Shown: in pieces, positions 1,774 through 36,821 of the stretch
Numbering within the stretch: position 1 is the first letter of the stretch
How the letters are laid out: each line of letters opens with the position of its first letter
Sequence record: SRR31156797_8874
Length of the DNA stretch: 38,836 nucleotides
Direction: 5' to 3' (one strand)
Program-made: the position numbers and the translations under genes
Notes under the pieces: model-generated
Told to the model about the DNA's origin: nothing
Database searches by the model: none
Seen by the model: the letters and a program-made list of their open reading frames with translations, nothing else

Positions 1774-1775
1774 TA

Positions 1776-2621: not shown

Positions 2622-2635
2622 TACAGGGAAAACAC

Positions 2636-4098: not shown

Positions 4099-4133
4099 AA
4101 GTGTTTGGGAGTGATTTTTAAAGTGAGGACAAA

Positions 4134-5120: not shown

Positions 5121-6932
5121 ATGACAATACTTGATAAATTATCCGTAGTTTTTAATCCGGCCGAGCAAAAAATAATAGCCTTTCTTTTTGTAGGTGTTTT
5201 TGTGCTGAGTCTGCTCGAAGTTGCAGGTGTCGCTTCTATCGCCCCTTTCATGGCTGTAGTTTCTAACCCTGACATAATTCATAGGAATGAGTTTTTAAGT
5301 TCAGTGTATAACCACTCCAGTGCCACAAGTGTCGGCCAATTTCAGATCGGTCTGGGTGCATTTGTGTTGGGTGTGCTGATTATATCCAATGGTTACGCGG
5401 CCTTTATGACCTGGCAGATTATTTGTTTTAGTAAAAAACAAGGCCATAATTTGGCGGTGCGTCTGTTCAGCAATTACCTATCGCAACCCTATCTCTTTTT
5501 TTTAAACAGGAATTCTGCAGATTTATGTAAAAATGTGCTTTCTGAAGTAGAGCGAAGCGTTAACGGCGTTATTTTGCCTGGGATGCAAGTGCTTTCGAAA
5601 GTTGTGGTTACTATCGTTCTGTGTTCTTTTTTGATATATTTGGAACCCATAATATCAGTTAGTGTTATTTTTGTGTTTGGTGGTGCTTATGCATTAATTT
5701 TCAAATTTGCGCGGCATCGATTGCACTTGTTAGGGGTTGCTTCAACCAAAGTAATATTGAGTCGTTTTAAAATTGCCAACGAAGCCATGTCTGGAATCAA
5801 AGATTTGAAACTGCACGGTAGTGAACAGGAGTTTTTCAATCGATTTTCAGAACCTTCAGAGGCACATGCACATATTTCTTCTCGGAGTGCCATGATTTCG
5901 CTGCTCCCCCGCTATGCTCTCGAGACTACCGCCTTTGGTGGAATTATAGTGTTTGTATGTTACTTAATTTACAGTGGTAAAAATAGCGGTGAAATCATTC
6001 CATTAATCTCCATTTACGCACTTGCAGGATATAAGCTGCTGCCGGCACTGCAACAGATCTATTCTAATGTAACTACTATAAGATATAACCTGCCATCACT
6101 GGAAATCTTAATCACAGATCTTTTTCATTCAAAGGGTAAAAGGAATACCTCACAACAGACGAATCAAACGATTCATTTTGGAAAACTTCTCCAATTGGTA
6201 TCATTGAACTTTTATTATCCGGGTATCCAGGAGCCGGTGATAGACGATTTGAACCTGAAGGTTTTTCCTAATACGACTGTGGGACTGGTGGGAACTACTG
6301 GTTCTGGCAAGACCACATTAGTTGATATTTTACTGGGATTGTTACCTGTTGGATCAGGTCAGTTTACCATAGATGATGTAAAAATTACGGAACAAAATCT
6401 TTCCGCCTGGCAGAAAAATATAGGCTATGTTCCGCAAGATATTTATCTGATCGATAATACTATCGCACGGAATATAGCTTTTGCTATACCTGATGATAAA
6501 ATTGATATGGACAAAGTGATCGAAGCAGCAAAACTGGCAGAATTAGACGCCTTTATTCAGGAGCTACCATTACAATATCAAACAGAGGTGGGTGAACGTG
6601 GTGTCCGTCTCAGTGGGGGGCAGCGCCAACGAATTGGTATTGCCCGTGCCTTATACTACAATCCTAAAATACTGATATTGGATGAAGCCACTAGTGCCCT
6701 GGACGGAATCACTGAAAATGTGATTATGGACGCTATTCACAATTTATCTAACCAGAAAACTATTATCATGATTGCTCACCGCTTGGCCAGTCTCAAAGAG
6801 TGTGATGTAATTCATGTGATGGATAAGGGCAAAATAACCGATAGTGGCTCTTATGATGAATTAATTGTGAAAAATGAGCAGTTTAGAAATATGGCAAATC
6901 AGAAGGAATCCCCAGACCAGATTGTTTCATGA
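5121..6932 (+). CDS. ABC transporter, fused permease-ATPase, PglK/WlaB/MsbA-like lipid-linked oligosaccharide flippase
   Basis: N-terminal hydrophobic helices; Walker A GTTGSGKT, signature LSGGQRQR, Walker B ILILDEATSALD, H-loop IAHRL; glycan-cluster context. Confidence 0.88.
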   Translation: MTILDKLSVVFNPAEQKIIAFLFVGVFVLSLLEVAGVASIAPFMAVVSNPDIIHRNEFLSSVYNHSSATSVGQFQIGLGAFVLGVLIISNGYAAFMTWQIICFSKKQGHNLAVRLFSNYLSQPYLFFLNRNSADLCKNVLSEVERSVNGVILPGMQVLSKVVVTIVLCSFLIYLEPIISVSVIFVFGGAYALIFKFARHRLHLLGVASTKVILSRFKIANEAMSGIKDLKLHGSEQEFFNRFSEPSEAHAHISSRSAMISLLPRYALETTAFGGIIVFVCYLIYSGKNSGEIIPLISIYALAGYKLLPALQQIYSNVTTIRYNLPSLEILITDLFHSKGKRNTSQQTNQTIHFGKLLQLVSLNFYYPGIQEPVIDDLNLKVFPNTTVGLVGTTGSGKTTLVDILLGLLPVGSGQFTIDDVKITEQNLSAWQKNIGYVPQDIYLIDNTIARNIAFAIPDDKIDMDKVIEAAKLAELDAFIQELPLQYQTEVGERGVRLSGGQRQRIGIARALYYNPKILILDEATSALDGITENVIMDAIHNLSNQKTIIMIAHRLASLKECDVIHVMDKGKITDSGSYDELIVKNEQFRNMANQKESPDQIVS

Positions 6933-7053
6933 TTAAGTCTGGTTCAAGGCTTCTTTTATTTTAAAAAATTTCCACCGCCGGCAGAGATAACAGATCTCTG
7001 AAATGGGATTGTTAAGGAAAGATTTTGGCAACAGACTTTGTAGAGAGCAAAAA

Positions 7054-8034
7054 ATGAAAAGAGTACTTATCACAGGGGCTGACGGATTTATCGGTTCACA
7101 TCTTACTGAAATGTTGGTTGCCAAAGGCTGTCAAGTAAAGGCACTTTCTCAGTATAATTCCTTCAATAATTGGGGATGGTTGGAGGAGGTTGATTGTAAA
7201 GATCAAATTGAAATCTTGGCTGGAGACGTGCGAGATCCTTATTACTGTAAGCATATCACAAAAAATATAGATGTCGTTTTTCATCTCGCAGCACTGATTG
7301 CTATACCATACTCCTATACAGCTCCAGAAAGTTATGTGGATACGAACATAAAGGGAACACTCAATATTTGTCAGGCGGCACGCGAAAATGATGTGAATCG
7401 TGTCATTCATACATCGACAAGTGAAGTGTATGGCACTGCTCAGTATGTTCCGATTGACGAAAAGCACCCATTGCAACCACAATCTCCCTATAGTGCCACT
7501 AAGATTGCTGCCGATGCAATAGCAATGAGTTTCCATAATGCCTTTGATCTGCCGGTTACCATTGCTCGGCCATTTAACACTTATGGCCCGCGCCAATCTG
7601 CACGGGCAGTAATTCCAACTATAATTACGCAAATTGCAAACGGTAAAAAAGAAATTCAATTGGGTGATGTGGCGCCGACGCGGGATTTCAACTATGTAGA
7701 AGATACCTGCAGAGGTCTCATTGCTCTGGCTGAATGTGATACCGTTATTGGTCGAACACTCAATATTGGCTCGAACTATGAAATCAGCGTGGGTGACACC
7801 CTTAATATCATTAAAGAACTGATGGGGAGTGATGTAAGATTTATTGTCGATGAACAGCGTCTACGGCCGGGTAAATCAGAGGTTTTCCGACTCTGGTGTG
7901 ATAATAGCAAAATAGTAGCGTTAACGGGATTTAAACCAGAGGTTGATATACGCGAGGGGCTGCAAAAGACGATTGATTGGATTACACAGCCAGAACACCT
8001 GAAAACCTACAAAGCAGAAATTTATAATGTTTGA
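7054..8034 (+). CDS. legB: NDP-GlcNAc 4,6-dehydratase, LegB-like
   Basis: GADGFIGSH, YNSFNNWGWL, HLAALIAIPYSY, TSTSEVYG and YSATK motifs; start taken at ATG 7054. Confidence 0.85.
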   Translation: MKRVLITGADGFIGSHLTEMLVAKGCQVKALSQYNSFNNWGWLEEVDCKDQIEILAGDVRDPYYCKHITKNIDVVFHLAALIAIPYSYTAPESYVDTNIKGTLNICQAARENDVNRVIHTSTSEVYGTAQYVPIDEKHPLQPQSPYSATKIAADAIAMSFHNAFDLPVTIARPFNTYGPRQSARAVIPTIITQIANGKKEIQLGDVAPTRDFNYVEDTCRGLIALAECDTVIGRTLNIGSNYEISVGDTLNIIKELMGSDVRFIVDEQRLRPGKSEVFRLWCDNSKIVALTGFKPEVDIREGLQKTIDWITQPEHLKTYKAEIYNV

Positions 8035-9190
8035 TGATTTTGTGAATTTTGTGCGAGAACTCTATGGCACCAATGATTACATCCCATTACATGAGCCTCG
8101 ATTTGTTGGCAATGAAAAAAAATATTTGCTCGAAACTATTGATACAACCTTTGTTTCAAGTGTTGGTAAATTCGTCGATGATTTTGAATCTGCCGTTGCA
8201 GAATATACAGGTGCAAAATTTGCTATTGCCACAGTGAACGGAACAGCGGCATTGCATACGGCACTGAAGTTGGCAGATGTCAATAGTTGCGATGAAGTTA
8301 TCACTCAGTCGTTAACATTTGTGGCGACTTGCAATGCCATTCGCTATTGTAATGCCGAGCCGGTTTTTGTGGATGTTTGCAGGAAAACTCTTGGACTCTC
8401 ACCAAAAAGTGTAAAAGCTTTTCTTGAAGAACATTGCGAAGTGCGAACTGATGGTTGCTGTTGGAACAAGAAAACGAATCGAATCGTTCGTGCCTGTGTC
8501 CCCATGCATACCTTTGGTTTTCCAGTTCAACTGGATGAACTGAAGTTAATTTGTGATCAGTACAACATTGTTTTGGTCGAGGAGGCGGCTGAATCGCTCG
8601 GTAGTTTTTATAAGGGGCGGCATACTGGTACCACGGGCAAGGTCGCTATCCTCAGTTTTAATGGCAACAAGATTGTTACCACCGGTGGTGGTGGTATAAT
8701 CCTTACTAATGACAAGGAACTTGCCACTCAGGCTAAGCACATCACCACAACGGCAAAGCTTTTACATAGTTGGGATTTTGAGCATGATGAGACCGGTTTC
8801 AACTACCGACTTCCTAATATCAATGCAGCGCTTGGTGTGGCGCAGATGGAGGCTTTGGCCGGATTCGTTGACAAGAAGCGTGAAGTCGCTATGCGATATC
8901 AAGAGTGGGGTAAAGAAAAAGGCGTACGTTTTGTACTGGAACCAGATGATACAAAAGCAAACTATTGGTTGAACGCCGTCATCACCAAAGACAAGCAACA
9001 GCGGGATTTAATGTTGGAGCACACAAATAAAAACCATGTGATGACTCGTCCAGCATGGACGCCCATGCATAGACTACCAATGAACTTATATTGTCAACAT
9101 GATGAATTAAAAAACACCGAGTGGCTATTTGAACGTTTGGTGAATATTCCAAGTAGCGTTCCTCAAGGGGCAACTCACATTAATGGCTAA
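8027..9190 (+). CDS. legC: LegC-family PLP-dependent sugar aminotransferase
   Basis: IPLHEP, FVSSVG, SFNGNKIVTTGGGG, FNYRLPNINAALG and NIPSS motifs; directly follows legB. Confidence 0.88.
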   Translation: MFDDFVNFVRELYGTNDYIPLHEPRFVGNEKKYLLETIDTTFVSSVGKFVDDFESAVAEYTGAKFAIATVNGTAALHTALKLADVNSCDEVITQSLTFVATCNAIRYCNAEPVFVDVCRKTLGLSPKSVKAFLEEHCEVRTDGCCWNKKTNRIVRACVPMHTFGFPVQLDELKLICDQYNIVLVEEAAESLGSFYKGRHTGTTGKVAILSFNGNKIVTTGGGGIILTNDKELATQAKHITTTAKLLHSWDFEHDETGFNYRLPNINAALGVAQMEALAGFVDKKREVAMRYQEWGKEKGVRFVLEPDDTKANYWLNAVITKDKQQRDLMLEHTNKNHVMTRPAWTPMHRLPMNLYCQHDELKNTEWLFERLVNIPSSVPQGATHING

Positions 9191-10073
9191 ACATTGTAAT
9201 AATGAAGTTGCCGTTGTAGGGGTTGTTTACCCAGGCATAGAAGACTATTTGGAAGATTATTTTTGTTCTCTTGAAAAACAGACCCTTAAACATTTCGATC
9301 TGATAATCGCTAATGACGGATTGAAAAAAGACATAGCATCGTTGCCCGGTCGAGGTATAAATTCTTACATCATTAATGTTGATGGGACTGTCTCTTCAAA
9401 CAGGAGAACATTAATTAATGAGGTGATAGAGAGAGGATACCAAAAGATTATTTTCACAGACTGTGATGATGTTTTTAAAGAGAATCGTTTTGAGGTTGCT
9501 TGTGATTTGCTCGATATTTTCTCCATTGTAACAAATGAGTTAGATCTTATCGACCCGGATGGCGAAGAAAACCAGACAGACTTCTTTTCCACTCGTTTTG
9601 GCAAATCAAGAACAATAACTGTAAATGACCTAATTTCTGGAAACATGATGGGTTTATCAAATACAGCTTTGAAAATAGAGGTTCTTCAAGATTGTCCAGC
9701 TCTGATATCAGGAGAATCCATCGCATTCGATTGGTACTTATGGTCGTCAATCCTGCTGAAAGGCTACAAAGCGATGTTCACAGCAGAAACATCCACCAAG
9801 TATCGAATCCATGATCAAAATATAGCTGGACTCCCGCAACCACTTACCGAAAAAAGTGTAGCAAAAGGCGTTGAAGTCAAGCTACAACATTATGGATTGA
9901 TGTCAAAGTATGATGACATGTACTCAGAATTGGCAATCGAGTTCCAGAGAGTTAGCGAGCAATTAGAGGATAAAATCTGGCAAAAGGAATACTTGGCAGC
10001 CCTTCAGGAGTGCGCGATTGACCAGCACATGTGGTGGGAAAACATTCGAATACCTTTAGATGTAGGATTATAA
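9183..10073 (+). CDS. GT2/GT-A-fold-like protein of uncertain function
   Basis: SLEKQT..FDLIIANDG, DxD motif FTDCDD, AFDW and YRIHDQN. Confidence 0.65.
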   Translation: MAKHCNNEVAVVGVVYPGIEDYLEDYFCSLEKQTLKHFDLIIANDGLKKDIASLPGRGINSYIINVDGTVSSNRRTLINEVIERGYQKIIFTDCDDVFKENRFEVACDLLDIFSIVTNELDLIDPDGEENQTDFFSTRFGKSRTITVNDLISGNMMGLSNTALKIEVLQDCPALISGESIAFDWYLWSSILLKGYKAMFTAETSTKYRIHDQNIAGLPQPLTEKSVAKGVEVKLQHYGLMSKYDDMYSELAIEFQRVSEQLEDKIWQKEYLAALQECAIDQHMWWENIRIPLDVGL

Positions 10074-10074
10074 A

Positions 10075-11130
10075 ATGAAAATAAAACTCACAAAAAATCG
10101 TTTTATTGGAAAAGCCGAAAAACCTTATATTATAGCAGAACTTGGATCAAACCATAATGGAGACATGGAGTTAGCAAAAAAACTCATTGTGGCGGCCAAG
10201 GAGGCTGGCGCGGACTGTGTTAAGTTCCAGTCATGGTCTAAAGAGACAATTTTTTCTAAAAAGACCTATGAGGCCAATTATTTCTTAGCTGATGACTACC
10301 GTAACCGCAATGATTTTACCCTTGAAGAAATTGTTGAAGAATATGCCATTTCAGAACAGGAATTGCTTGAAATGAAATGTTTCTCCGATGAGATTGGGAT
10401 TGATTGCACATCAACTCCTTTCTCAAATAGGGAGGTTGATTTTTTAGTAGAGAAGATGGACGTTGATTTTATAAAGATTGCATCCATGGATCTTAATAAC
10501 TATCCATTTATTGAGTATGTCGCTTCAAAAGGCAAGCCAATCGTTCTCGCTACCGGATTGAGCACTTTAGCAGAAATAGATACCGCTATCCAAGCCATTG
10601 AGAACACAGGTAATGATCAGATTGTAATCATGCACTGTGTTTCCATTTATCCACCTGAAGACCGACAAGTTAATCTGCGTAACATGGATACCTTATATCA
10701 GGCATACCAATATCCAGTAGGTTTTTCTGACCACACCATGGGGACTTGTGTGCCGCTTGCGGCAATTGCGCGAGGTGCATGCCTTATTGAGAAACACTTT
10801 ACACTGGATAAGACCATGGAAGGTTGGGATCATAAAGTTTCTTCAGACCTAAACGATATGAAAATATTGGTTAACGATGCGCACCGCATTCACACTGCCT
10901 TGGGGGCAGCAAGAGTAACTCGAGTTGAAAATAAAGAGCGTCTGGGAGCATTTCGCCGAAGTATTGTTGCCGCAAGAGACATTCGTAAAGGTGAAATGTT
11001 TTCTAAAGAGATGCTTGATTCAAAACGGCCAGGAACTGGATTAAAGCCGGAAGTTGTCAGGTATATTATTGGAAAGAAGGCAACGCGGGATATTTCCTAT
11101 GACGAAATCATTGCTTTTGAGGATTTTTAA
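10075..11130 (+). CDS. NeuB-family nonulosonic acid synthase with SAF domain (LegI-like)
   Basis: IAELGSNHNG, VKFQ, KIASMD, GFSDHT and IEKHFT motifs; C-terminal RRSIVAARDI...KRPGTG. Confidence 0.9.
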   Translation: MKIKLTKNRFIGKAEKPYIIAELGSNHNGDMELAKKLIVAAKEAGADCVKFQSWSKETIFSKKTYEANYFLADDYRNRNDFTLEEIVEEYAISEQELLEMKCFSDEIGIDCTSTPFSNREVDFLVEKMDVDFIKIASMDLNNYPFIEYVASKGKPIVLATGLSTLAEIDTAIQAIENTGNDQIVIMHCVSIYPPEDRQVNLRNMDTLYQAYQYPVGFSDHTMGTCVPLAAIARGACLIEKHFTLDKTMEGWDHKVSSDLNDMKILVNDAHRIHTALGAARVTRVENKERLGAFRRSIVAARDIRKGEMFSKEMLDSKRPGTGLKPEVVRYIIGKKATRDISYDEIIAFEDF

Positions 11131-11150
11131 TTGCAACCAGGTATGAAACT

Positions 11151-12107
11151 ATGAAGATAGGTTATTTTGCAGATGGACCTTGGTCTCATTTAGCTCTCGA
11201 GATGATTACTAATGACGATCGATTCGAGGTGGCCTTTATTGTCCCGCGCTATGACACCCAAGATCCGATTCTCAAACAGTGGAGTGTGAGGCTTGGCGTT
11301 GATTACCTTTGCATCAGAAACGTCAATCAGCCAGAAAGTATAGAAAGATTGAAAAGCTATGGAGCAGACATCTTTGTTTCAATGTCATTCAATCAGATAT
11401 TAAAGGCAGAAATAATAGAAGCCACACCGCTTGGTTTCATCAACTGTCATGCTGGCGCACTGCCATTATACCGGGGCCGCAATATTCTTAACTGGGTTTT
11501 GATAAATGATGCACCAGAGTTTGGCGTCACAGTTCATTATGTAGATACTGGGATTGATACTGGAGACATCATCATACAAAGAATGGCTGGCATTACAGAC
11601 GAAGATGATTACAAAACACTCCTTGATCGAGCAATCATTTTATGTGCAGAGCTTTTGCTTGAAGCTCTGATCAGCTTTGCGGACGGTACGGTCCAGCGAA
11701 AATCTCAGTTAGATTTTAACTCAATTGGGTTTTATTGCGGTCGTCGTCGCAAAGGAGATGAGTGGATTAATTGGCATTGGCCGAGTCGTAGAATTTTTAA
11801 TTTTATCCGTGCTATCACAGACCCGGGGCCATGCGCCCATACACTACTCGATGGGCAATTAATCAAGATTAAAAAGGCCGTTCCCATACAAGGAGCAATT
11901 GATTACATAGGAGAGCCTGGTGAGATTGTTGGAATAGAGAATGAAGGATTTGTTGTGAAGACCGGAGACTCAACTATTCTCATAATTAATATCGAACCGA
12001 CTTCCAATGTCAATAAATTAAGAATCGGACGGCGCTTTGGGGGGAAAAATCAAATGGTAATTGAAAAGTTGCAGGAACGAATTTCAACACTTGAAAAAAA
12101 ATTGTAG
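11151..12107 (+). CDS. N10-formyl-THF-dependent sugar N-formyltransferase (Fmt-like)
   Basis: INCHAGALPLYRG and VHYVDTGIDTGDI motifs plus an Fmt-like C-terminal domain; located inside the nonulosonate module. Confidence 0.85.
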   Translation: MKIGYFADGPWSHLALEMITNDDRFEVAFIVPRYDTQDPILKQWSVRLGVDYLCIRNVNQPESIERLKSYGADIFVSMSFNQILKAEIIEATPLGFINCHAGALPLYRGRNILNWVLINDAPEFGVTVHYVDTGIDTGDIIIQRMAGITDEDDYKTLLDRAIILCAELLLEALISFADGTVQRKSQLDFNSIGFYCGRRRKGDEWINWHWPSRRIFNFIRAITDPGPCAHTLLDGQLIKIKKAVPIQGAIDYIGEPGEIVGIENEGFVVKTGDSTILIINIEPTSNVNKLRIGRRFGGKNQMVIEKLQERISTLEKKL

Positions 12108-12208
12108 AACTCGATATGCACCCGAAAATAAAATCATTTTTTTGATGGCGCTCGGAACTTTTACCCAGCCATCTTATGACATTTTAACCAAAAAAAAGAA
12201 GAAGAAAC

Positions 12209-12898
12209 ATGTTAGCTATAATTCCAGCTCGTGGAGGAAGTAAGGGCTTACCAGGAAAAAACATTCGCTCTTTGGGAGGAATACCCCTTATTGCTCATTC
12301 TATTCGTGAGGCTTTAAATGCAGATTTTGTAACACGGGTTATTGTGTCAACAGATGATTTGGAAATCGCCTCTACTGCAAAGAAGTTTGGAGCAGAAGTG
12401 CCATTCTTGCGCCCGCCTGAACTTGCAACAGACAATGCCATGGTTATGGACACCTATCTCTATACGGTAGACCGAATTGCTGAAGAAGATAAAGAATCAA
12501 TTGAATCATTTATTGCTTTGCTACCCACCGTCCCTCTAAGGGCTGCAAAAGATATAGATGAAGCCGTCCAAATATTTAATCATAAAAAAGCAGATTCTGT
12601 AATTAGTGTTACAGATGCACCTGTTCCTGTGCAATGGTATAGAAGAATTCGTGATGATGGAGTTCTCTGTGATTATTTGCCAGGCTTTGATGCTGTTAGA
12701 AATCGCCAGGAGATCGAACATACATATGTACCCAATGGCGCTGTATATGTTTTCCGCACTGAAGTATTACGTTCAACGCGACAATATTATACAGAGGGAA
12801 CCTATCCGTATGTTATGCCGCGTGAGCGCTCAGCAGACATTGATGTGATGCTTGATTTTGAGTGGGCAGAGTTTTTATTAAAGAAAAAGATAGTCTAA
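12209..12898 (+). CDS. CMP-nonulosonate synthetase (NeuA/LegF-like)
   Basis: IIPARGGSKGLPGKN, VPFLRPPELATD, PTVPLR, PNGAVY and DID motifs. Confidence 0.9.
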   Translation: MLAIIPARGGSKGLPGKNIRSLGGIPLIAHSIREALNADFVTRVIVSTDDLEIASTAKKFGAEVPFLRPPELATDNAMVMDTYLYTVDRIAEEDKESIESFIALLPTVPLRAAKDIDEAVQIFNHKKADSVISVTDAPVPVQWYRRIRDDGVLCDYLPGFDAVRNRQEIEHTYVPNGAVYVFRTEVLRSTRQYYTEGTYPYVMPRERSADIDVMLDFEWAEFLLKKKIV

Positions 12899-13891
12899 AT
12901 GGAGACTCTTTATAAAGCTGCTGTTGTTGGATTGGGAAGAATCGGCTCTTCTTATCCGTCTGCAGATATTCCACGCACCCACACCTGTGCATACAAAGAA
13001 AATAAAAGAATAAAAGTTGTCGCCGGAGTTGACCCTGATGTCCATGCACGTATGGCTTTTGCTGAAAAATGGGGTAATGAGATATCTGTCTTTTCCTCTG
13101 TTACAGAAATGTTGTCAGAAGTTCAACCGGATATAATTAGTCTGTGTGTTCATCCTTTTATCTTACCACAGATTGTTGAAGAGTGTCGGTTATCCCCCCC
13201 AAAACTCTTTTTTTTGGAAAAACCGGTGGTGGTACATCCTGACCAAGTTCCTCTGCTTCAGACGGCAATTAACAATGTGCCTGCGGCCGTTAACTATCAT
13301 CGTTGCTGGGATCCTGTACATATACGATTTTTTGAAAAAGTGTTTGCCTTAGGTGAGGTTGTGGCCGTCAGGGTGATATACAACAATGGGATGTTTAATT
13401 ATGCCAGTCATGCTATTTCATTGCTGCTTCATCATTTTGGCTCAGTTTCAAGTGTAACAAAGCTAGGAAACAGAACTTATGATGATTCTATAGCTGATCC
13501 GTCTTTTGATTTTATCCTTGGATTTGAGTCAGGTTTTGATGCTGTTTTTCAAGGTTTTGATGGACTTCCATATGACCTGCTGGAGTTGGAAGTTATATCC
13601 ACAACTGGCATATATACACTTAAAGCGGCCGGCTGCAGGCGCCGCATGGAACTTCCCAAGAAAAATACTTTTTATCCCGGCTATACGCAACTCATTGACG
13701 CGCCCCCCCTTGAAATTGATTCTCCCGTTGAAGGATTACCTCAGGCAATAGGTAATATCGTTAATTTTTTGGATGGAGAAACATCCAGCCTATCATGTGA
13801 CTTGACTCTGGGGCTGGATGTTTTTGATATACTTTGGCGCGTAAAAGAACTTACCCCCCTAAACCAAGAGAGTGGAGAAAATGGTAACTAA
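12899..13891 (+). CDS. Gfo/Idh/MocA-family NAD(P)-dependent oxidoreductase
   Basis: VVGLGRIG, LEKP, VNYHR and NYASH motifs. Confidence 0.82.
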   Translation: METLYKAAVVGLGRIGSSYPSADIPRTHTCAYKENKRIKVVAGVDPDVHARMAFAEKWGNEISVFSSVTEMLSEVQPDIISLCVHPFILPQIVEECRLSPPKLFFLEKPVVVHPDQVPLLQTAINNVPAAVNYHRCWDPVHIRFFEKVFALGEVVAVRVIYNNGMFNYASHAISLLLHHFGSVSSVTKLGNRTYDDSIADPSFDFILGFESGFDAVFQGFDGLPYDLLELEVISTTGIYTLKAAGCRRRMELPKKNTFYPGYTQLIDAPPLEIDSPVEGLPQAIGNIVNFLDGETSSLSCDLTLGLDVFDILWRVKELTPLNQESGENGN

Positions 13892-15182
13892 ACCAGCAAT
13901 CCTAGGTGGAGAACCTGAAAACATTAAAGTCTTTCCACCGTACAATACTATTGGCGATGAAGAGAAAAAGGCTGTCATGGATGTACTCGAAAGTGGTGAA
14001 CTTTCTGGTTTTGTTGCAGCCCCAATTCCTGAATTTAACGGAGGCCCACAAGTAAAGGCCTTAGAACAAGCGTTTTGTGACTATTTTGACGTCAAACATG
14101 CTGTTGCTGTCAATTCAGCCACAAGTGGACTCTATTGCATGCTGATGGCTATGGGGATTGGACCGGGGGATGAGGTAATCACATCTCCCTATACAATGCA
14201 TGCAACAGCTTCAAGCGTATTACAATGCGGGGCTGTTCCTATTTTTGCAGATATTGAAGACGAAACATTTGGATTGGATCCTAAATCAGTCAGGGAAAAT
14301 ATAACTGAAAACACCAAGGGTATTCTTGCAGTCAATATATTTGGCCACGCTGCTCAGTTAAACGAATTGAAAGAGATTGCAATTCAGCATGACCTTTGGT
14401 TACTTGAGGATAATGCCCAGGCACCCGCAGGTATTCTTGAAGGTGAAAATTTTACAGGGACAATAGGACGTGCCGGAGTTTTTAGTTTCAATAGGCACAA
14501 AACAATGCAGAGCGGTGAAGGCGGAGTTGTTATCACCAATGATGATGCTATTGCCCAAAAGATGAGACTTGTCCGTAATCATGGTGAAACAGTTGTTTCA
14601 GCATGGGAAATTGAAGATATTGTTAATACAATCGGGCAAAACCTCAGAATGACAGAAATGGAGGCCGCTGTCGCCCTCTGTCAGTTTCGTAAATTAGATC
14701 AATTAAACGATGCAAGGATTCAATTAGCTGAATATTTAACTCAGGCCCTTAAGGATATTCCGGGGATAATTCCTCCCCATGTTAGAGAGGACTGCAGGCA
14801 TGTTTATTATTTCTATGTTATGAAATATGATGAAAGCATAATTGGCTTATCTCGAGAAAAATTTGTCGATGCTATGCAGGCTGAAGGATATTATCTTCGT
14901 GGGGGGTATTTGCGACCAATCTATTTAGAACCCTTATTTACTCAGAAAATATGCTTTGGGAAAAACGGTTATCCTTTTACTATTAATTCACGTAATGATG
15001 ACATTATTTATGGTCACGGTCTATGCCCAACCTGTGAACGACTCGATAATGAAGAAATAGTCTTGACAAACATTATCTATCCTCCATTGACAACTAAAGA
15101 TATGGATGGCTTTATTAATGCTGTAAAAAAGATTGTTGCTTATGCTGATGAAATAGAAGAGGCCGGAGCAAATAATCGGTGA
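13881..15182 (+). CDS. DegT/DnrJ/EryC1/StrS-family aminotransferase
   Basis: VNSATSGL, GDEVI, EDNAQA, SFNRHKTMQSGEGG and NLRMTE motifs; ATG 13881 with GGAG RBS. Confidence 0.9.
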   Translation: MVTKPAILGGEPENIKVFPPYNTIGDEEKKAVMDVLESGELSGFVAAPIPEFNGGPQVKALEQAFCDYFDVKHAVAVNSATSGLYCMLMAMGIGPGDEVITSPYTMHATASSVLQCGAVPIFADIEDETFGLDPKSVRENITENTKGILAVNIFGHAAQLNELKEIAIQHDLWLLEDNAQAPAGILEGENFTGTIGRAGVFSFNRHKTMQSGEGGVVITNDDAIAQKMRLVRNHGETVVSAWEIEDIVNTIGQNLRMTEMEAAVALCQFRKLDQLNDARIQLAEYLTQALKDIPGIIPPHVREDCRHVYYFYVMKYDESIIGLSREKFVDAMQAEGYYLRGGYLRPIYLEPLFTQKICFGKNGYPFTINSRNDDIIYGHGLCPTCERLDNEEIVLTNIIYPPLTTKDMDGFINAVKKIVAYADEIEEAGANNR

Positions 15183-16150
15183 TAATTTTTGTCACAGGTC
15201 AATTTGCGGCTGCACAGTATATTCATCCATTACTGAAGCGATGGGGGAGCCGTATGGCAGATTTTTGTCAAATAGTTGCAACCGGCCCCTCGTGTAAATA
15301 TTGGGATGATTGTGGCTTACCCTATACTTTTTTTGAGGATCAATCCCCTTCTGCTGTCGCCTCATACCTTGAGTTACTAAAACCCTCACTTATTGTTGTA
15401 TCTGCATCAGCCAATGAAAAACTGGAATTTAATTTTGTTGTGGAGGCCAAAGCCAAAGGAATTGACTCCGCTAGCTTCATAGATATGTGGACGAATTACC
15501 GTGCGCGTTTTCTGTATAAGGGGAAGACGGTTTTCCCTGACCACATATTAGCTATTGATGACCGATGTGCTGATGAAATGGTGGCCGAGGGAATCCCCGA
15601 TAAGAAGATCCGTATTATTGGCCAGCCATATTTGGAAATTGTTGCCTCCACACCTCCTCCACTCGGAGACAACGTATTGCTGGCAAGTCAACCCATCAGA
15701 AAGCTCAGGGGCACTAATCTTGGATACGATGAAACAGATTTTCGGAATATATGTTTGAAAGCGTTTGAAGAGTTATCAACCGATAATGTCTGCGCCACCT
15801 GTCACCCCGATGAAAAAGACACATCGGTACAAGTAGACACACCTGGACTCCTTTGGCAGTCGGGCCAAGGGATACTTGATGTTGCTCATTGCCATACCGT
15901 GCTTGGTATGTATTCTATGCAGATGGTCATTGGGTATTTGTGGGGGCGAAAAGTTGCCAGTGTTCAGCCTGGCTTATGTACCAATGATCCTTCGCCCCTG
16001 TCTCGATGGGGGTTGATTCCCCTCCTTGAGCGAGTTGATGATCTCGTCGATTTCATTCAGAATAGTGACGAGGGGGAAAGACAGGGAGATTTCTTATTTA
16101 ACCTCGACGGTAGTCTCAATCGGTTCGAAGCATTTTGTCGCAACGGCTAA
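15179..16150 (+). CDS. Hypothetical GT-B-like protein, possible ulosonate transferase
   Basis: IDMWTNY, IIGQPYLE, LLASQP, CHP and LGMYSM segments resemble GT-B transferases; GTGA overlap with the aminotransferase. Confidence 0.45.
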   Translation: MIIFVTGQFAAAQYIHPLLKRWGSRMADFCQIVATGPSCKYWDDCGLPYTFFEDQSPSAVASYLELLKPSLIVVSASANEKLEFNFVVEAKAKGIDSASFIDMWTNYRARFLYKGKTVFPDHILAIDDRCADEMVAEGIPDKKIRIIGQPYLEIVASTPPPLGDNVLLASQPIRKLRGTNLGYDETDFRNICLKAFEELSTDNVCATCHPDEKDTSVQVDTPGLLWQSGQGILDVAHCHTVLGMYSMQMVIGYLWGRKVASVQPGLCTNDPSPLSRWGLIPLLERVDDLVDFIQNSDEGERQGDFLFNLDGSLNRFEAFCRNG

Positions 16151-16335
16151 CCAGTTCAACCGAATAAAATATTATCAGAGATCTTGGCAAAATCCGAAGG
16201 AAATTAGATCAAAGGTCTCATAGAGGTTTTTATAAATTATGCCAGAATCGCAAGGGATTCATAAATGCATAAGGTTTGCAGATAATAATACGGAACCTGA
16301 CTGAAAAACTCTTGAAATGTGGGAACAACGAAACT

Positions 16336-17457
16336 ATGAGATTTTGTAAAAAATGCGTTAATGTGGATACTCGTCCCAATACTCAATTTGACGCCGAGGG
16401 GTTATGCCCTGTTTGTTTAAATAACAAATTGAAGGATTCAGGGAAAATAGATTGGGGCGAGAGGACCAAGGAACTCAAAAAAATTGCAGATTGGGGTAGG
16501 GCGCAGTCGAAATGCTCGTATGATTGTATCGTTGCTGTTAGCGGAGGAAAGGACAGTATGCGGCAATCCATGTATGTCAGAGATGAATTGAAAATGAAGC
16601 CTTTGTTAGTTAGCTGTACATATCCGCCTGAGCAACAGCATTCTCGATGCCAGGACAATTTCAGTAATCTTATTTCATATGGATTTGATGCCATCTCAGT
16701 TAGTCCCAATCCGCAAATCTGGAAAAAATTGATGCGTCATGCATTTTTTACCTATGGGAACTGGTGTAAAGCAACTGAATTGGCTCTTTATTCAATACCA
16801 ATTCATGTCTCAATTGCCTATCAGATTCCTCTTGTTTTTCTAGGCGAAAATCCAGCTATGATGATAGGTGAACAACACGGAACATTAGATGGTGATGCCA
16901 CTGGAATGAAACATTGTAATACGTTGGGAGGTGGCGATCCTTCAAAATTTATGTCTCAGGATGTAAGAGAAAAAGACTTGTTTTTTTACACCTATCCAAG
17001 TGACGAGGATATGGAACAGGGCAAGGTGAGAATCGTGTATTTAGGATACTACATCGAGGATTTCGTTGGCTATGTCAACGGTAACCTTGCAATTGAGCAA
17101 GGCATGAAGGTGAGAACTGAGTCTCCCGAACAGATTGGTGATCTCTGGGGTTTTACCGGTCTTGATGAGGATTGTCGCATTGTCAATCAAATGATCAAAT
17201 ACTATAAATTCGGTTATGGGACTGTAATAGACCAGGCCTGCGATGCCATAAAGTTAGGTATGATGACCCGGGAGGAGGCCGTAACACTTGTCCGCAAGTA
17301 TGATGGTAAATGTGACTATTCGTTCATCAAATGGGTGTGTGGTTTTCTTGAAATTTCAGAGGAAGAGTTCTGGGATACTGTTGAATCCCTAATAAACAAA
17401 GACTTGTTTGAAAAGAACAGAGACGGGAAATGGGTTCCAACTTTTGAGGTTTGTTAA
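16336..17457 (+). CDS. N-acetyl sugar amidotransferase (WbpG/WbuX/PseA family), copy 1
   Basis: N-terminal CKKC...TRP...CPVC, PP-loop VSGGKDS, KYYKFGYG and MTREEA. Confidence 0.88.
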   Translation: MRFCKKCVNVDTRPNTQFDAEGLCPVCLNNKLKDSGKIDWGERTKELKKIADWGRAQSKCSYDCIVAVSGGKDSMRQSMYVRDELKMKPLLVSCTYPPEQQHSRCQDNFSNLISYGFDAISVSPNPQIWKKLMRHAFFTYGNWCKATELALYSIPIHVSIAYQIPLVFLGENPAMMIGEQHGTLDGDATGMKHCNTLGGGDPSKFMSQDVREKDLFFYTYPSDEDMEQGKVRIVYLGYYIEDFVGYVNGNLAIEQGMKVRTESPEQIGDLWGFTGLDEDCRIVNQMIKYYKFGYGTVIDQACDAIKLGMMTREEAVTLVRKYDGKCDYSFIKWVCGFLEISEEEFWDTVESLINKDLFEKNRDGKWVPTFEVC

Positions 17458-17458
17458 G

Positions 17459-18118
17459 ATGTGTCATGAAAAAAATATAAAAAAAATAGCTGTTGTTAAT
17501 TATGGCATGGGAAATATAGGGTCGGTCTGCAATGCATTGGATTTTCTCAAGGGAAATTATTCTGTTGCCAAAACGCCCGCCGAATTGGAAGGCGCAGATG
17601 CTTATATCCTCCCCGGTGTGGGTGCTTTCAGCGCAGCGATGAAAGCTTTGACAAAATCGGGGATGGGTGAAACGTTAACCCGCCTGGTTGTTGAGCAACA
17701 AAGGCCATTTTTGGGGATATGCCTGGGGATGCAGTTGATCGCCAAAAATTCAATTGAATATGAATATACTGAGGGGCTGGGCTGGATTGATGCAAACGTT
17801 GTTCATCTTCCTCCCGGTGAAGGACTGAGGGTTCCTCACGTGGGATGGAATAATCTATCCATAAGCATCAAACAGCCACTGTTTGACAGAATAGATGAAC
17901 ATAATAATTTTTTCTATGACCATTGTTTTCATTTTCAGTGTCACGATAATAGCGTTGTGGCGGCGACATGCAATTACGGTATTACCTTTGTTGCTGCAGT
18001 CCAGAAGGATAATATTTTTGCAACGCAGTTTCACCCGGAAAAGAGCCAGAGGAGTGGTTTGAAAGTCCTGAGATCATTTCTAAATTATATTGAAAACACT
18101 AATCGTACGGTGATGTAA
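17459..18118 (+). CDS. HisH-like class I glutamine amidotransferase (WbuY-like)
   Basis: YGMGNIGSV, LPGVGAF, GICLGMQ (catalytic Cys), VPHVGWN and QFHPEKS (His-Glu). Confidence 0.9.
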   Translation: MCHEKNIKKIAVVNYGMGNIGSVCNALDFLKGNYSVAKTPAELEGADAYILPGVGAFSAAMKALTKSGMGETLTRLVVEQQRPFLGICLGMQLIAKNSIEYEYTEGLGWIDANVVHLPPGEGLRVPHVGWNNLSISIKQPLFDRIDEHNNFFYDHCFHFQCHDNSVVAATCNYGITFVAAVQKDNIFATQFHPEKSQRSGLKVLRSFLNYIENTNRTVM

Positions 18119-18987
18119 TGCTGAAGCAGAGGGTAATAGCTATCCTTGTCATCCGACAGGGATGGGTCGTCCAAAGTTTTGGATTTAAAAGATATCTGCC
18201 GGTTGGTTCCTTGGCAGTGGCTGTGGATTTTCTTAATCAGTGGGGGGTTGATGAAATCATTGTTTTGGATATAGACGCTACCCCTAACAACCGAAAATTC
18301 TATGCAGACCGGATGAAGGAATATACCAAGTATTGTCATGTTCCACTGACCGTTGGAGGGGGAATTTCTTCGGTCGATGATATAGAATTATTGATTCATG
18401 CAGGGGCCGATAAAATATCACTGAATGCTGCTGCGATCAATAATCCAACATTGATCCAGGAGGGTTCCAGAAAATTCGGGAACCAGTGTATTGTGGTTTC
18501 GCTTGATGCAAAAAGAATGGGGGATAACCGCTATGAGATATTCACTCATTCGGGCACTTGTCCTTCTGGATATTCTCCAGTTGAAGCCGCACAGAGGGCG
18601 CAAGACAATGGGGCTGGAGAGATCCTTCTTAATTCGATTGACCGTGATGGGGCTAAGCAGGGGTTTGATCTCGATTTGATCAATAGTGTTGCAGTAGCAG
18701 TTTCTATCCCTGTGGTTGCCTGTGGAGGGGTCGGATTGCCCTCTCATTTTGTCGATGGTTTGGCTCTTGGCATTTCAGGCGTGGCAGCGGCTAATTATTT
18801 TCATCACAGCGAACATAGTGTAATAGTTGCCAAAAGCTTCATTAATTCCATGAAATCAACAGTTCGGCTTGATACCGCCATGGATTATACAGAATTTTGT
18901 TTTACACCTAATGGTCGTATTCAAAAAGCGGATGATGATGTTCTGGCAAGACAACGCTTCATACATATCCCTGAGGAAAAAATATGA
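18118..18987 (+). CDS. HisF-like cyclase-fold ammonia-channel subunit (WbuZ-like)
   Basis: VDEIIVLDI, PLTVGGGI, GAGEILLNSIDRDG and PVVACGG motifs; C-terminal extension relative to housekeeping HisF. Confidence 0.88.
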   Translation: MLKQRVIAILVIRQGWVVQSFGFKRYLPVGSLAVAVDFLNQWGVDEIIVLDIDATPNNRKFYADRMKEYTKYCHVPLTVGGGISSVDDIELLIHAGADKISLNAAAINNPTLIQEGSRKFGNQCIVVSLDAKRMGDNRYEIFTHSGTCPSGYSPVEAAQRAQDNGAGEILLNSIDRDGAKQGFDLDLINSVAVAVSIPVVACGGVGLPSHFVDGLALGISGVAAANYFHHSEHSVIVAKSFINSMKSTVRLDTAMDYTEFCFTPNGRIQKADDDVLARQRFIHIPEEKI

Positions 18988-20234
18988 GATATTGCAAAAG
19001 ATGTTTATACCCTGAAAATCATCCGCTTGGGATTGTTTTTGACCAAGAGGGAGTATGTAGCGGTTGTCGGGTTCATGAAGAAAAAGATGAAATCAATTGG
19101 GATGAAAGGGTAAAAATACTCGAGACTATTCTGAATGATTATCGTACTAAAAAACGTGCAATTTATGATTGTATCATTCCGGTCAGTGGTGGTCGAGATT
19201 CGTATTATATAGTCCACATTGTCAAGAATATTTTTAAGATGCATCCCCTACTTGTAAATTATAACAACCAGTATAATACTCCAGTGGGAATCAGGAATTT
19301 GTCCTATCTGCGTACACTTTTTGGGTGTGACCTGATTAGCCAAAATGTGAGTCCGTATCTAGCCCGGGCGATAACCAAGGAAACTATTCACCTTATGGGA
19401 AGTATGTATTGGCATTGTCTTGCTGGAGGTACAGTATTCCCTGTGCATATTGCTGTGAAATTTAAGATTCCATTAATTATCTGGGGTGCCCACCAAGGGT
19501 GTGATCAGGTAGGAATGTTTTCGCATTATGACGAGGTGGAGATGACCCGGAAATATCGGAAGGAGCATGATTTACTTGGATTCGAGGCCGAAGATCTTGC
19601 CCGTTGGAGTTCGACACTTCGCCCGGAAGACCTTGAGCTTTTTAAGTATCCTTATGATGGCGAGATCGCGGCTGTTGGTGTTCGGGGTATATACTTGAAC
19701 AACTATATCCGCTGGGATTCAAAGGCGCAGCACGAGAAAATGATGGACTTGTATAGGTATAAATCAGCACCTCAGCAAAGAACATTTGATACGTATAATG
19801 ACGTTGACAGTGTTCACTATTCTGGAATTCATGACTATATAAAGTTTTTGAAGTTTGGGTTTGGTAAAGTCACCGACCATGCATGCCGGGAAATCCGTCT
19901 AAAAAGACTGACAAGGGAGGAGGGGATTGGTCTTGTCCAGCGCTTTCAGGCGGTTTACCCTAAAGATTTAAACTTATTTCTAAAATGGATAGGAATGGAT
20001 GAGCCTGATTTTTGGCAGGAGATTAACAAGTTCCGAGATAAAAGAGTATGGGTGAAAGATGATCGAGGTGAATGGCAATTATCTGATAGCGTTGTGAATC
20101 ATATTAATGATGAAGGTGTTGATGCTGTCCGGTTGGAGAAAAATGGAATTTGTGATTTTAGGGTCAGTAAAGATAAAGACAGAAATCATGAAAGCAAAGA
20201 ATACATCCTCTATGGTAGGGGATGGGAAGACTAA
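18984..20234 (+). CDS. N-acetyl sugar amidotransferase (WbpG/WbuX/PseA family), copy 2
   Basis: YCKRC...CSGC, VSGGRDS, KFLKFGFG and LTREEG. Confidence 0.88.
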   Translation: MRYCKRCLYPENHPLGIVFDQEGVCSGCRVHEEKDEINWDERVKILETILNDYRTKKRAIYDCIIPVSGGRDSYYIVHIVKNIFKMHPLLVNYNNQYNTPVGIRNLSYLRTLFGCDLISQNVSPYLARAITKETIHLMGSMYWHCLAGGTVFPVHIAVKFKIPLIIWGAHQGCDQVGMFSHYDEVEMTRKYRKEHDLLGFEAEDLARWSSTLRPEDLELFKYPYDGEIAAVGVRGIYLNNYIRWDSKAQHEKMMDLYRYKSAPQQRTFDTYNDVDSVHYSGIHDYIKFLKFGFGKVTDHACREIRLKRLTREEGIGLVQRFQAVYPKDLNLFLKWIGMDEPDFWQEINKFRDKRVWVKDDRGEWQLSDSVVNHINDEGVDAVRLEKNGICDFRVSKDKDRNHESKEYILYGRGWED

Positions 20235-21428: not shown

Positions 21429-22493
21429 ATGATAAAACTTGAAAAATACACTATCTTTGCGTCTGATATAGTAACGGATGCAATTAAATCAATGAATGTC
21501 AATGGTGTTAATTTGTTGGTGGTTATAGATTCGGACCACAAAGCTCTGGGGGTTTTTACAATTGCAGACTTTCGAAAAGCGGTTTTACAAGGTTTGGATA
21601 TAAATGAAGAAGTATCGAAAGTAATTAATAGAAATTATTTTAGCTTAAATAAAGGGTTTACTAGGGAAGAAGCCATTTACTTATTTGAAAAAGTGAATGA
21701 TTTACCGGTTTTTGAAGATGGTAAGTTGGTTGATGTCCTGAATAAAAATGATTTTTTATCAATTGCTGAAGCTAAAAACCTAAATAATAAAATAAAGAAT
21801 CTGCCTGTAATCATTATGGCAGGGGGCAAAGGCAAACGGTTAGATCCGTTTACACGTATTCTTCCGAAGCCACTAATTCCATTAGGTAATGATCCTGTGA
21901 TCAAGGTCATCATGGACGAATTTGGGAAGTTCAATATAAGCAATTTTTATATATCCATAAGAGACAAAGGGCAGATGATTAAAGCTTATTTTCACGATTC
22001 TGATTTAGTCGGTGATTATAGCATTCAGTATGTCGAGGAAAACAAGCCTCTTGGCACAGCAGGATCCTTGAAGTATTTAGAGGGTAAAATCGAAACAGAA
22101 TTCTTTGTTTCTAACTGTGATATTATTGTAAATACGGATTATGAATCAGTTTACGATTTCCATAAAAAAGGTTCATATAATCTAACCATTATCGCAGCTA
22201 TGCGTTCTTTCACAATCCCCTATGGCGTTTGTGATGTTATAAATGGAGGGGATTTGGAAAAAATTAACGAAAAACCAGAATATAGTTTTGTTGTTAATAC
22301 AGGATTATATTTGATAGAGCCTGAAGTGTTGAGCTTTATTCCTGAGAATAGATATTTTGATATGACTGACCTGATCGATAAAATAGATCAAGGGGGCTTA
22401 AAGGTTGGCGTTTATCCGGTGCCTGAAAAATCATGGATTGATGTCGGGCAGTGGGCTGAATATAAGAAAACGATTGAAGAATGGAAACTTTAA
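21429..22493 (+). CDS. CBS-domain sugar-1-phosphate nucleotidyltransferase (PtmE/LegX-like)
   Basis: N-terminal CBS pair; IMAGGKGKRL..LPKPL, PLGTAGSL, VSNCD, IPYGV, EKP and WIDVG motifs. Confidence 0.88.
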   Translation: MIKLEKYTIFASDIVTDAIKSMNVNGVNLLVVIDSDHKALGVFTIADFRKAVLQGLDINEEVSKVINRNYFSLNKGFTREEAIYLFEKVNDLPVFEDGKLVDVLNKNDFLSIAEAKNLNNKIKNLPVIIMAGGKGKRLDPFTRILPKPLIPLGNDPVIKVIMDEFGKFNISNFYISIRDKGQMIKAYFHDSDLVGDYSIQYVEENKPLGTAGSLKYLEGKIETEFFVSNCDIIVNTDYESVYDFHKKGSYNLTIIAAMRSFTIPYGVCDVINGGDLEKINEKPEYSFVVNTGLYLIEPEVLSFIPENRYFDMTDLIDKIDQGGLKVGVYPVPEKSWIDVGQWAEYKKTIEEWKL

Positions 22494-36119: not shown

Positions 36120-36821
36120 ATGAATGAATTAGAAAAAAAAATAAAAGCAGAGAAACAAGAATCAATACAGCGTGCAAATGAACTAATAGCCCAGGGAGTA
36201 TATGTGAGAGACCCCATGAGATTTGACATAAGGGGTTCACTTGAATGTGGTAAAAATGTTGAAATTGACATTAATGTAATTATTGAAGGTGATGTAAAGC
36301 TGGGAGATAGGGTTAAGATAGGTCCCAATTGTATTCTTAAAGATTCTACCATAGAGGAAGGTGCAAAGATAAAGGCCAACTCCATGGTGGAGAGTGCTGC
36401 TATTGGCAAGTCTTGTTTAATTGGGCCATACGCAAGGGTTCGCGCCGGCACAAAGTTAGGTGATCGAGTTCAGATTGGAAATTATGTTGAAGTTAAAGAG
36501 GTCACCATGGATGCCGGATGCAAAGTCAATCATCTGAGTTATATTGGGGATGCTACCCTTGGAGAGAGAGTGATTATTGGTGCCGGCACAATCACCTGTA
36601 ACTTTGATGGCACAAAAAAGAATGATACTCATGTTGAAAACAGCGCTTTTATTGGTTCAGGCTGCGAATTGGTAGCCCCGGTAAGAGTGGGCGAACGCTC
36701 AATGGTTGGCGCAGGCTCAACTATAACAAAGGATGTGCCTGCGTTTGAGTTGACCCTGGCGCGCAGCCGTCAAGTGGTAATTAAAGGCAAAAGACCGCCA
36801 ATATCATATGAAAAGGACTAA
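36120..36821 (+). CDS. Stand-alone GlmU C-terminal (left-handed beta-helix) N-acetyltransferase domain
   Basis: [45 protein letters not shown] and LVAPV motifs; 233 aa with no N-terminal uridyltransferase domain. Confidence 0.85.

Follow-up and report, generated by a model that had tools for sequence, protein, structure and literature searches.

A conserved nonulosonate gene module with a GT2-like candidate NDP-sugar hydrolase in the place of NeuC/LegG

The Leg-like module and its GT2-like protein

The stretch of DNA analysed here (the window) comprises 38,836 nucleotides (nt) of the sequence record SRR31156797_8874, with all coordinates counted from its first letter, and represents, by Pfam and NCBIfam scans of its open reading frames (ORFs), a long, single-strand surface-polysaccharide locus. 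Within it lies a module similar to the legionaminic acid (Leg) pathway, in which a protein related to the family 2 glycosyltransferases (GT2), designated P0001, occupies the slot of NeuC/LegG and probably frees the nucleoside diphosphate (NDP)-linked sugar for the synthase encoded next to it. As a variant of the nonulosonate pathway the module is real and conserved and has not been described so far; its chemistry is predicted. The more complete statement, namely that the GT2-like enzyme fills this slot and releases the nucleotide without epimerisation at C2, is given a probability of roughly 0.45.

The six genes of the module (Table 1, first rows) follow the order legB-legC-[GT-A-like]-neuB-[formyltransferase]-neuA that had been proposed in the initial annotation and is borne out by the Pfam and NCBIfam matches, with both LegB and LegC passing the equivalog cut-offs of the canonical legionaminic acid pathway. 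The tight packing of the first four genes was likewise read from the sequence: LegB overlaps LegC by 8 nt, LegC overlaps the ORF of the GT2-like protein by another 8 nt (ATGGCTAA), and 1 nt lies between the stop of the latter and the ATG of NeuB. The start of the module had to be corrected, position 7054 being an internal methionine of the longest LegB ORF, which begins at 7003. The lack of a hydrolysing 2-epimerase held for the whole window, as no match to Epimerase_2 (PF02350) was found among the 37 ORFs scanned, and the NCBIfam scan of 32 ORFs gave no match to the NeuC model (TIGR03568) or the PseG model (TIGR03590).

The NeuB-family synthases condense phosphoenolpyruvate (PEP) with a free aldose, and a nucleotide-releasing step is therefore required ahead of them. 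To our knowledge, only two solutions for this step are known in the nonulosonate pathways, NeuC/LegG and PseG.

The AlphaFold2 (AF2) model of P0001, built on an alignment of 23 relatives, reached a predicted local distance difference test (pLDDT) of 92.1 and a predicted template modelling (pTM) score of 0.90, and its top Foldseek matches in the PDB were 5hea, 9jn3, 8bz7, 5tze and 1qg8 (probability 1.00, template modelling score 0.5-0.8, E 5e-12 to 2e-9, 11-20% identity), which places it in the GT-A fold of the inverting GT2 enzymes GalT1/CgT (5hea), AvpGT, RmlT, TarS and SpsA. The profile of 101 family members matched GalT1 5hea with E 2.7e-16, and the family motifs NDG, DaDD and avDW aligned with NDGS, DSDD and eDD of the latter; the GT-A-like character ascribed earlier to 9183-10073 is confirmed both by the fold and by this profile match to solved GT2 enzymes. 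Throughout the 101 sequences the residues Q33, D93, D95, D96, G157, D183, N213 and W284 were invariant, with N44 and D45 nearly so. Both the nucleotide-binding Asp after strand 2 and the DxD metal/diphosphate motif are present in P0001, while the invariant D183, with avDW lying on eDD of 5hea, takes the position of the GT2 base, where water and a true acceptor are indistinguishable by sequence. The family has in addition its own conserved C-terminal helical part, with the end motif WWE(N)I. Judged by fold and motifs, P0001 is a divergent enzyme of the GT2 fold that retains the complete apparatus for donor binding, with an Asp at the position of the base.

The divergence is also reflected in the family scans, since P0001 gave no Pfam match at E<=1e-3, being thus below the gathering score of PF00535, and only weak GT2 matches in NCBIfam (TuaG 5.6e-5, PRK10073 2.3e-4). 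The PF00535 cut-off of 23.3 was passed by the relatives in loci L002 (32.3 bits) and L005 (34.5 bits), and the family is by its sequence a divergent GT2 subfamily. Its members are named in the databases only as "hypothetical" or "glycosyltransferase", and the ESM Atlas returned generic GT2 clusters for P0001. When all cluster representatives were searched with the family, 1367 clusters reached E<=1e-3 and 236 of them E<=1e-30, and membership is probably limited, by sequence, to those near the latter. In the genome searches the full-length members scored 217-352 bits, the generic GT2s did not exceed 80 bits, with matches confined to the N-terminal two thirds, and by this gap (>=217 versus <=80 bits) the weak profile matches were rejected as family members. 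True members were found in 2 of the 300 sampled genomes of the class of one Gammaproteobacteria genome (G001) and in 2 of the 401 of the phylum of another carrier (G005); a tblastn search of P0001 against plasmids and phages gave no match. The predicted complex of the synthase with the GT2-like protein had no support (score 0.00, mark 0.34, run without controls), and was used neither for nor against their interaction.

The same apparatus would serve a true inverting glycosyltransferase, acting on a glycan or on the nonulosonate and riding in the operon, with the release of the sugar left to an enzyme that is distant or has escaped recognition. The complete GT2 catalytic motifs, the scores of the L002 and L005 relatives above the Glycos_transf_2 cut-off and the database names fit such an enzyme, as do the several unannotated ORFs left in the related loci and the fact that the source organism is seen through the window only. 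The genomic behaviour of the family, given below, makes this explanation quite unlikely.

Genomic position, relation to NeuC and the partner synthases

The related loci comprised five from named genome records (two Gammaproteobacteria metagenome-assembled genomes (MAGs), a Methylomarinum MAG, a Pelagibacteraceae single cell and an Eggerthellaceae MAG) and 48 metagenome loci, the latter found with the closer alignment A1, with a bias to members at least about 30% identical that keep two motifs. NeuB was directly downstream of 49/51 GT2-like genes, the other two standing at a contig end, and, after dereplication at 90% identity, in all 28 evaluable clusters of the 29, with the gap between the two genes ranging from -80 to +22 nt. 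The occupancy of the NeuC/LegG slot, first noted for the window alone, is thus the property of a conserved family that adjoins NeuB on its upstream side. The front ends of the 29 clusters were of two types: LegB/LegC in 15 and PglF-like dehydratase with aminotransferase in 7, the remaining 7 being cut off; the PglF-like type, which includes PglD, was found in human-gut contigs and the Eggerthellaceae MAG. The carriers of the GT2-like gene belonged to marine Proteobacteria, the Pelagibacteraceae cell and human-gut Actinobacteria. Such a fixed place before NeuB (28/28), with two front-end types and in at least two phyla, is not expected of a glycan-building transferase, nor is its presence only where NeuC is missing, and the conservation, which extends along the whole protein and takes in the C-terminal WWE, would be more in keeping with a small substrate that is always the same than with an acceptor that varies.

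At the place of the window formyltransferase, a PglD-like gene was found in L001, L002, L003 and L012, and in ten loci (L004, L018-L021, L025-L027, L029 and L032) LegC and the GT2-like gene were separated by a formyltransferase together with a PIG-L-type deacetylase. Of the 29 distinct clusters, 8 had a PIG-L deacetylase among the five ORFs upstream, mostly with a formyltransferase; the pair suggests, on the grounds of gene content, that the 2-N-acetyl group may be swapped for a formyl group before the release. In the human-gut Actinobacteria (L005, L040-L056) the GT2-like gene, the synthase and the CMP (cytidine monophosphate)-transferase were joined to PglF/aminotransferase/PglD. Although they belong to a distant phylum, these Actinobacteria have a synthase and NeuA up to 61-64% identical to those of the window or its relatives, a similarity suggestive of lateral spread of the back-end module.

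The relation to NeuC was assessed in the 24 of 300 sampled genomes in which LegB was found. NeuC was present in 18 of them, the GT2-like gene in 2, neither in 4 and both in none; the LegB genomes without the GT2-like gene thus contained NeuC in 18/22 cases (17 above the cut-off, one split), and in at least two of the four with neither enzyme LegB lay on a very short contig. All seven genomes with the GT2-like gene (G001-G005, G102 and G650) had only WecB-type Epimerase_2 or none. The check for mutual exclusivity that had been suggested with the initial annotation therefore gave no co-occurrence with NeuC, either in the 24 LegB genomes or in the seven carriers. Elsewhere, the true NeuC of other loci scored 338-490 bits on TIGR03568, and in the NeuC-type LegB loci it was in the same locus as NeuB in 12/13 and 35 kb away in one. 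The split case belonged to a NeuC-type LegB cluster (L094, G193:C6:4209-4951), where NeuC is read in two frames covering the model positions 1-127 and 126-247, and its legG is probably frameshifted or truncated.

No other hydrolase was recognised in the related loci, where none of the 81 unclassified ORF representatives of 250-520 aa matched Epimerase_2 or a PseG-like family. The sole Epimerase_2 genes there, in L021 and L024, were of the WecB type (239 bits for wecB, 86 for NeuC) and stood just upstream of LegB. This position, with WecB-type Epimerase_2 in 5/7 of the carrier genomes, in some on the same contig, admits a division of the NeuC function, in which a WecB-like non-hydrolysing 2-epimerase inverts C2 on the NDP-sugar and the GT2-like enzyme hydrolyses only. 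However, no Epimerase_2 was found in the 38.8 kb of the window or in the carrier genomes G004 and G005, no such gene is conserved beside the module in the other loci, and the WecB-like genes of G001-G003 adjoin FnlA- and RmlD-like genes, a trio present also in L024 that fits an L-FucNAc-type pathway, so that this division appears very improbable. By the same location in FnlA/RmlD-like trios, the divergent WecB-like epimerases were rejected as hidden general partners of the module.

The synthases were compared by their scores against the cut-offs of TIGR03569 (NeuB/LegI equivalog, 399.65 bits) and PseI (340.25 bits). The window synthase stayed below both, with 345.3 and 296.3 bits, respectively, and so did all 19 scored partners of the GT2-like genes (296-357 and 245-300 bits) and the synthase of G650 (347 and 308 bits), whereas the 13 LegB-cluster synthases of the NeuC-holding genomes (410-507 bits on TIGR03569) were all above. 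In the synthase tree of 44 rows, the 20/20 GT2-like partners, the window included, formed one clade with a support of 100 in the Shimodaira-Hasegawa-like approximate likelihood-ratio test (SH-aLRT), apart from the clades of the 13 LegI (94) and the three true PseI (100). The best solved relative of the window synthase was a pseudaminic acid synthase (8h2c, 206 bits), ahead of NeuB of N. meningitidis (170). The two Gammaproteobacteria MAGs carry in addition a second full-length NeuB-family gene (Table 1), 11-13 kb from the GT2-linked one, which fell outside the three main synthase clades.

In the LegB tree, the clusters of the GT2-like and NeuC types interleaved with five label changes, and the nearest LegB to that of the window was a row from a NeuC-type cluster. 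The partner NeuA of 16/18 loci, the window's included, fell in one clade. The pairwise identity of the GT2-like proteins followed that of NeuB (Spearman 0.73; 378 pairs, 28 loci), with lower values for LegB (0.32), LegC (0.33) and NeuA (0.17); this tracking shows, as far as sequences go, co-inheritance at least, and not necessarily co-adaptation. The back end is, on the evidence of these trees, a unit, and the front end is common to both cluster types. A non-canonical product is made more plausible by the separate clades of the synthases and, for the most part, of the CMP-transferases, together with a LegB common to both cluster types.

These comparisons bear also on a reading in which the GT2-like enzyme releases the sugar and inverts C2 itself, by glycal elimination and hydration as in NeuC, and the products are ordinary legionaminic acid derivatives. 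The evidence for the slot (position, exclusion from NeuC, synthase scores) applies to it equally, LegB and LegC pass the equivalogs of the Leg pathway, and LegB is common with the NeuC-type clusters. Against it, the same free sugar would predict a LegI beside the GT2-like gene at least sometimes, while 20/20 partners belong to a separate clade, the 19/19 scored partners, the window synthase and that of L146 fail TIGR03569 where 13/13 LegI pass, and most partner CMP-transferases have a clade of their own. We know of no GT-A enzyme with elimination/hydration chemistry. The C2-inverting enzyme is considered unlikely, although legionaminic acid of B. subtilis is made with SpsG, not a NeuC-named enzyme, at the release step (PMC7439481); the release slot is thus not bound to NeuC, and it tolerates other enzymes with the Leg product unchanged.

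Proposed pathway, its strength and comparison with known systems

By family membership, LegB and LegC would yield the NDP-linked 4-amino-4,6-dideoxy derivative of N-acetylglucosamine (NDP-4-amino-4,6-dideoxy-GlcNAc), which the formyltransferase presumably acylates at N4. The GT2-like enzyme is proposed to bind the resulting NDP-diamino-trideoxyhexose through its Asp and DxD/metal site, with water as the acceptor, and since the chemistry of an inverting GT2 is limited to C1, release without C2 inversion would be the simplest outcome and would give a gluco-configured sugar. The adjoining dedicated synthase of the NeuB family may then join the free sugar to PEP, and the CMP-transferase may activate the nonulosonate product. 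By our own stereochemical reasoning, 2,4-diacylamido-2,4,6-trideoxy-D-glucose matches the substrate of PseI (6-deoxy-L-AltdiNAc) at C2/C3 and differs from that of LegI at C2; the gluco-configured sugar thus agrees with a clade of synthases apart from LegI and with a tendency towards PseI. The expected product is a C5 epimer of legionaminic acid, of the D-glycero-D-gulo configuration if the synthase keeps a PseI-like facial selectivity. It would be 7-N-formylated, because the formyltransferase replaces the PglD-like acetyltransferase of the relatives, and may be further tailored by the products of the WbuX/HisH/HisF genes.

The broadest form of the proposal is held tentatively, with more doubt than assent: that this GT-A family, widespread but rare, might be a dedicated non-epimerising NDP-sugar hydrolase, the first of its fold as a pathway hydrolase, which, with its own synthase and CMP-transferase clades, makes an undescribed 5-epi-legionaminic acid (D-glycero-D-gulo) from the NDP-bacillosamine-type intermediates that also serve legionaminic acid, in marine Proteobacteria, Pelagibacteraceae and human-gut Actinobacteria.

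Several observations weigh against release by the GT2-like enzyme without inversion. P0001 retains all that a true glycosyltransferase requires and bears no sequence mark for water as the acceptor, the hydrolysis reading resting on genomic context; moreover, by our reasoning, H2 might in principle be abstracted by a beta-face base, a step on which the NeuC chemistry depends. The absence of NeuC from the source organism covers the 38.8-kb window, and a distant neuC is possible. The exclusion from NeuC is weak if taken within the sampled LegB genomes alone, just two of which are carriers; four of the 24 had neither enzyme, and the seven carrier genomes are mostly incomplete MAGs or single-cell assemblies, so that the absence is uncertain in any one of them, although the pattern across them is consistent. 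The 81 ORF representatives scanned for a hidden hydrolase came from 135 ORF clusters, the other 54 consisting of ORFs shorter than 250 or longer than 520 aa that stayed outside the scan. With regard to the partners, the synthase clade was joined to PseI with an SH-aLRT of 88 in a quick tree, which is not strong, two partner NeuA (L037 and L090) stood outside the main NeuA clade, and the related rows in the identity correlation are not independent. Both the identity correlation and the distinctness of the synthase clade could result from the co-inheritance of abutting genes alone.

Compared with LegG/NeuC, P0001 shares the pathway step and the operon place, from the aminotransferase/acyltransferase to the NeuB-type synthase, but has a GT-A fold in place of the two-domain epimerase fold, with no relation in sequence or fold; it was never found with NeuC, its partner synthase is of another clade, and C2 inversion would not be expected of it. 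PseG is a metal-independent enzyme of the GT-B fold. The likeness to it is that P0001, too, is a candidate hydrolase from a glycosyltransferase superfamily ahead of a NeuB-family synthase, and that the window synthase has a pseudaminic acid synthase as its nearest solved structure; the differences are the GT-A fold with a DxD motif as against GT-B, and the front end, which is LegB/LegC or PglF/E/D and not PseB/PseC. The precedent of PseG invoked in the initial annotation therefore stands for a non-epimerising hydrolase in the slot and falls short for the fold; for a GT-A hydrolase in the release slot no direct precedent is known to us. With the inverting GT2s SpsA, TarS, RmlT, GalT1/CgT and AvpGT, the protein shares the fold, the nucleotide-binding Asp, the DxD and the Asp at the base position, and differs from them in the low identity given above, its own C-terminal helical part and the genomic behaviour of a pathway enzyme. 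As to the canonical legionaminic acid cassette (C. jejuni LegB-C-H-G-I-F with PtmE), the window has LegB, LegC, a PtmE-like protein, a NeuB-family synthase and a CMP-transferase, but no NeuC/LegG, its synthase is under the NeuB/LegI cut-off, and a formyltransferase stands at the place of LegH/PglD.

In the full-text literature, with most subscription journals outside the search, no description was found of a GT2/GT-A protein in the NeuC slot, nor of a D-glycero-D-gulo nonulosonate. The Halorubrum cluster still has legG/NeuC (PMC6137143), and a Ca. Kuenenia cluster with a deacetylase and a formyltransferase keeps legG/NeuC as well (SugarBase preprint).

If the role of P0001 in the slot is true, it would be a third solution for the release step, paired with a third synthase clade, and the carriers of the module are abundant marine lineages and human-gut Actinobacteria. 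Bacterial surfaces and flagella are capped by nonulosonic acids, which influence recognition by phages and immune systems, and the genome-based prediction of their pathways now uses NeuC or PseG as the marker of sugar release. Hydrolysis without C2 inversion, if true, would give the GT-A fold a new enzymatic function and probably yield a new natural sugar isomer, and bacillosamine-type sugars in free form, as well as new CMP-nonulosonates, could then be made for glycoengineering by simple enzymatic means. The label "GT2 family protein" beside neuB should be treated with caution and not be taken as evidence of a glycan transferase.

Accessory and neighbouring genes

Table 1. Features of the Leg-like module, of its surroundings in the window and of the second NeuB-family genes in two related genomes
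Feature	Coordinates	Strand	Evidence
LegB	7003..8034	+	TIGR04180 518.1 bits, cut-off 475
LegC-family C4 aminotransferase	8027..9190	+	TIGR04181 533 bits, cut-off 420
GT2-like protein P0001, 296 aa, candidate NDP-sugar hydrolase, NeuC/LegG slot	9183..10073	+	AF2 fold, family alignment, position
NeuB-family nonulosonate synthase, NeuB+SAF, third clade	10075..11130	+	Below TIGR03569 and PseI cut-offs
Sugar N-formyltransferase	11151..12107	+	Formyl_trans_N + Formyl_trans_C
CMP-nonulosonate synthetase (cytidylyltransferase)	12209..12898	+	CTP_transf_3; PseF model 158.7 bits, cut-off 205.7
GFO/IDH/MocA oxidoreductase, second DegT aminotransferase and 323-aa protein of no family	12899..16150	+	Pfam
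WbuX, HisH-like, WbuZ/HisF-like, second WbuX	16276..20234	+	TIGR03573 287.8 and 331.6 bits; HisH 217 bits; WbuZ 251.7 bits
CBS + nucleotidyltransferase, PtmE-like	21429..22493	+	CBS + NTP_transferase
Stand-alone GlmU C-terminal acetyltransferase domain	36120..36821	+	TIGR01173 279.8 bits, model positions 226-447 only
Second NeuB-family gene	G001:C29:26156-27130 (L110); G002:C32:64341-65315 (L109)		PseI 309 bits, below cut-off

The nearest solved structure to the window formyltransferase was the formyltransferase domain of ArnA (103 bits), with GDP-perosamine formyltransferase and PseJ also among its relatives. Downstream of neuA, the trio of an oxidoreductase, a DegT aminotransferase and a 323-aa protein recurs after neuA in L003/L013 (L003 10862-14096) and L090, and partly in L037. 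The 323-aa protein had only weak leads in the Atlas, to sialyl-/polysialyltransferase- or glycerophosphotransferase-like clusters, and the trio could add a further amino group or constitute an acceptor-sugar plus transferase unit.

Further on, one HisH/HisF-like pair stands between two WbuX-type N-acetyl sugar amidotransferases, a set of genes that by its annotation may be responsible for the tailoring of an N-acetyl to an acetamidino group; with the starts as called, the first WbuX and HisH overlap by 50 nt, and one of these starts is probably further downstream. The PtmE-like gene, with homologues in most of the related loci, would supply the NDP-amino sugar, and the GlmU-C-like domain possibly N-acetylates an NDP-glucosamine (NDP-GlcN) precursor, so that the precursor supply by the two is plausibly encoded in the same window.

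Upstream of the module, a second ulosonic-acid-like cassette (1177-4934) is followed by an ATP-binding cassette (ABC) exporter (5121-6932). It contains a GmhA-like SIS isomerase (TIGR00441 195 bits, below the cut-off), a cytidylyltransferase, a short-chain dehydrogenase/reductase (SDR), a radical S-adenosylmethionine (SAM)/SPASM protein and a NeuB-family protein that is short (281 aa) and lacks the SAF domain. The presence of a heptose-phosphate isomerase beside a NeuB-like synthase could point, by gene content, to a higher-carbon ulosonic acid. At the left edge of the locus, the ORF 84-536 carries the domains HTH_33, HTH_23 and HTH_28, typical of the N-termini of transposases.

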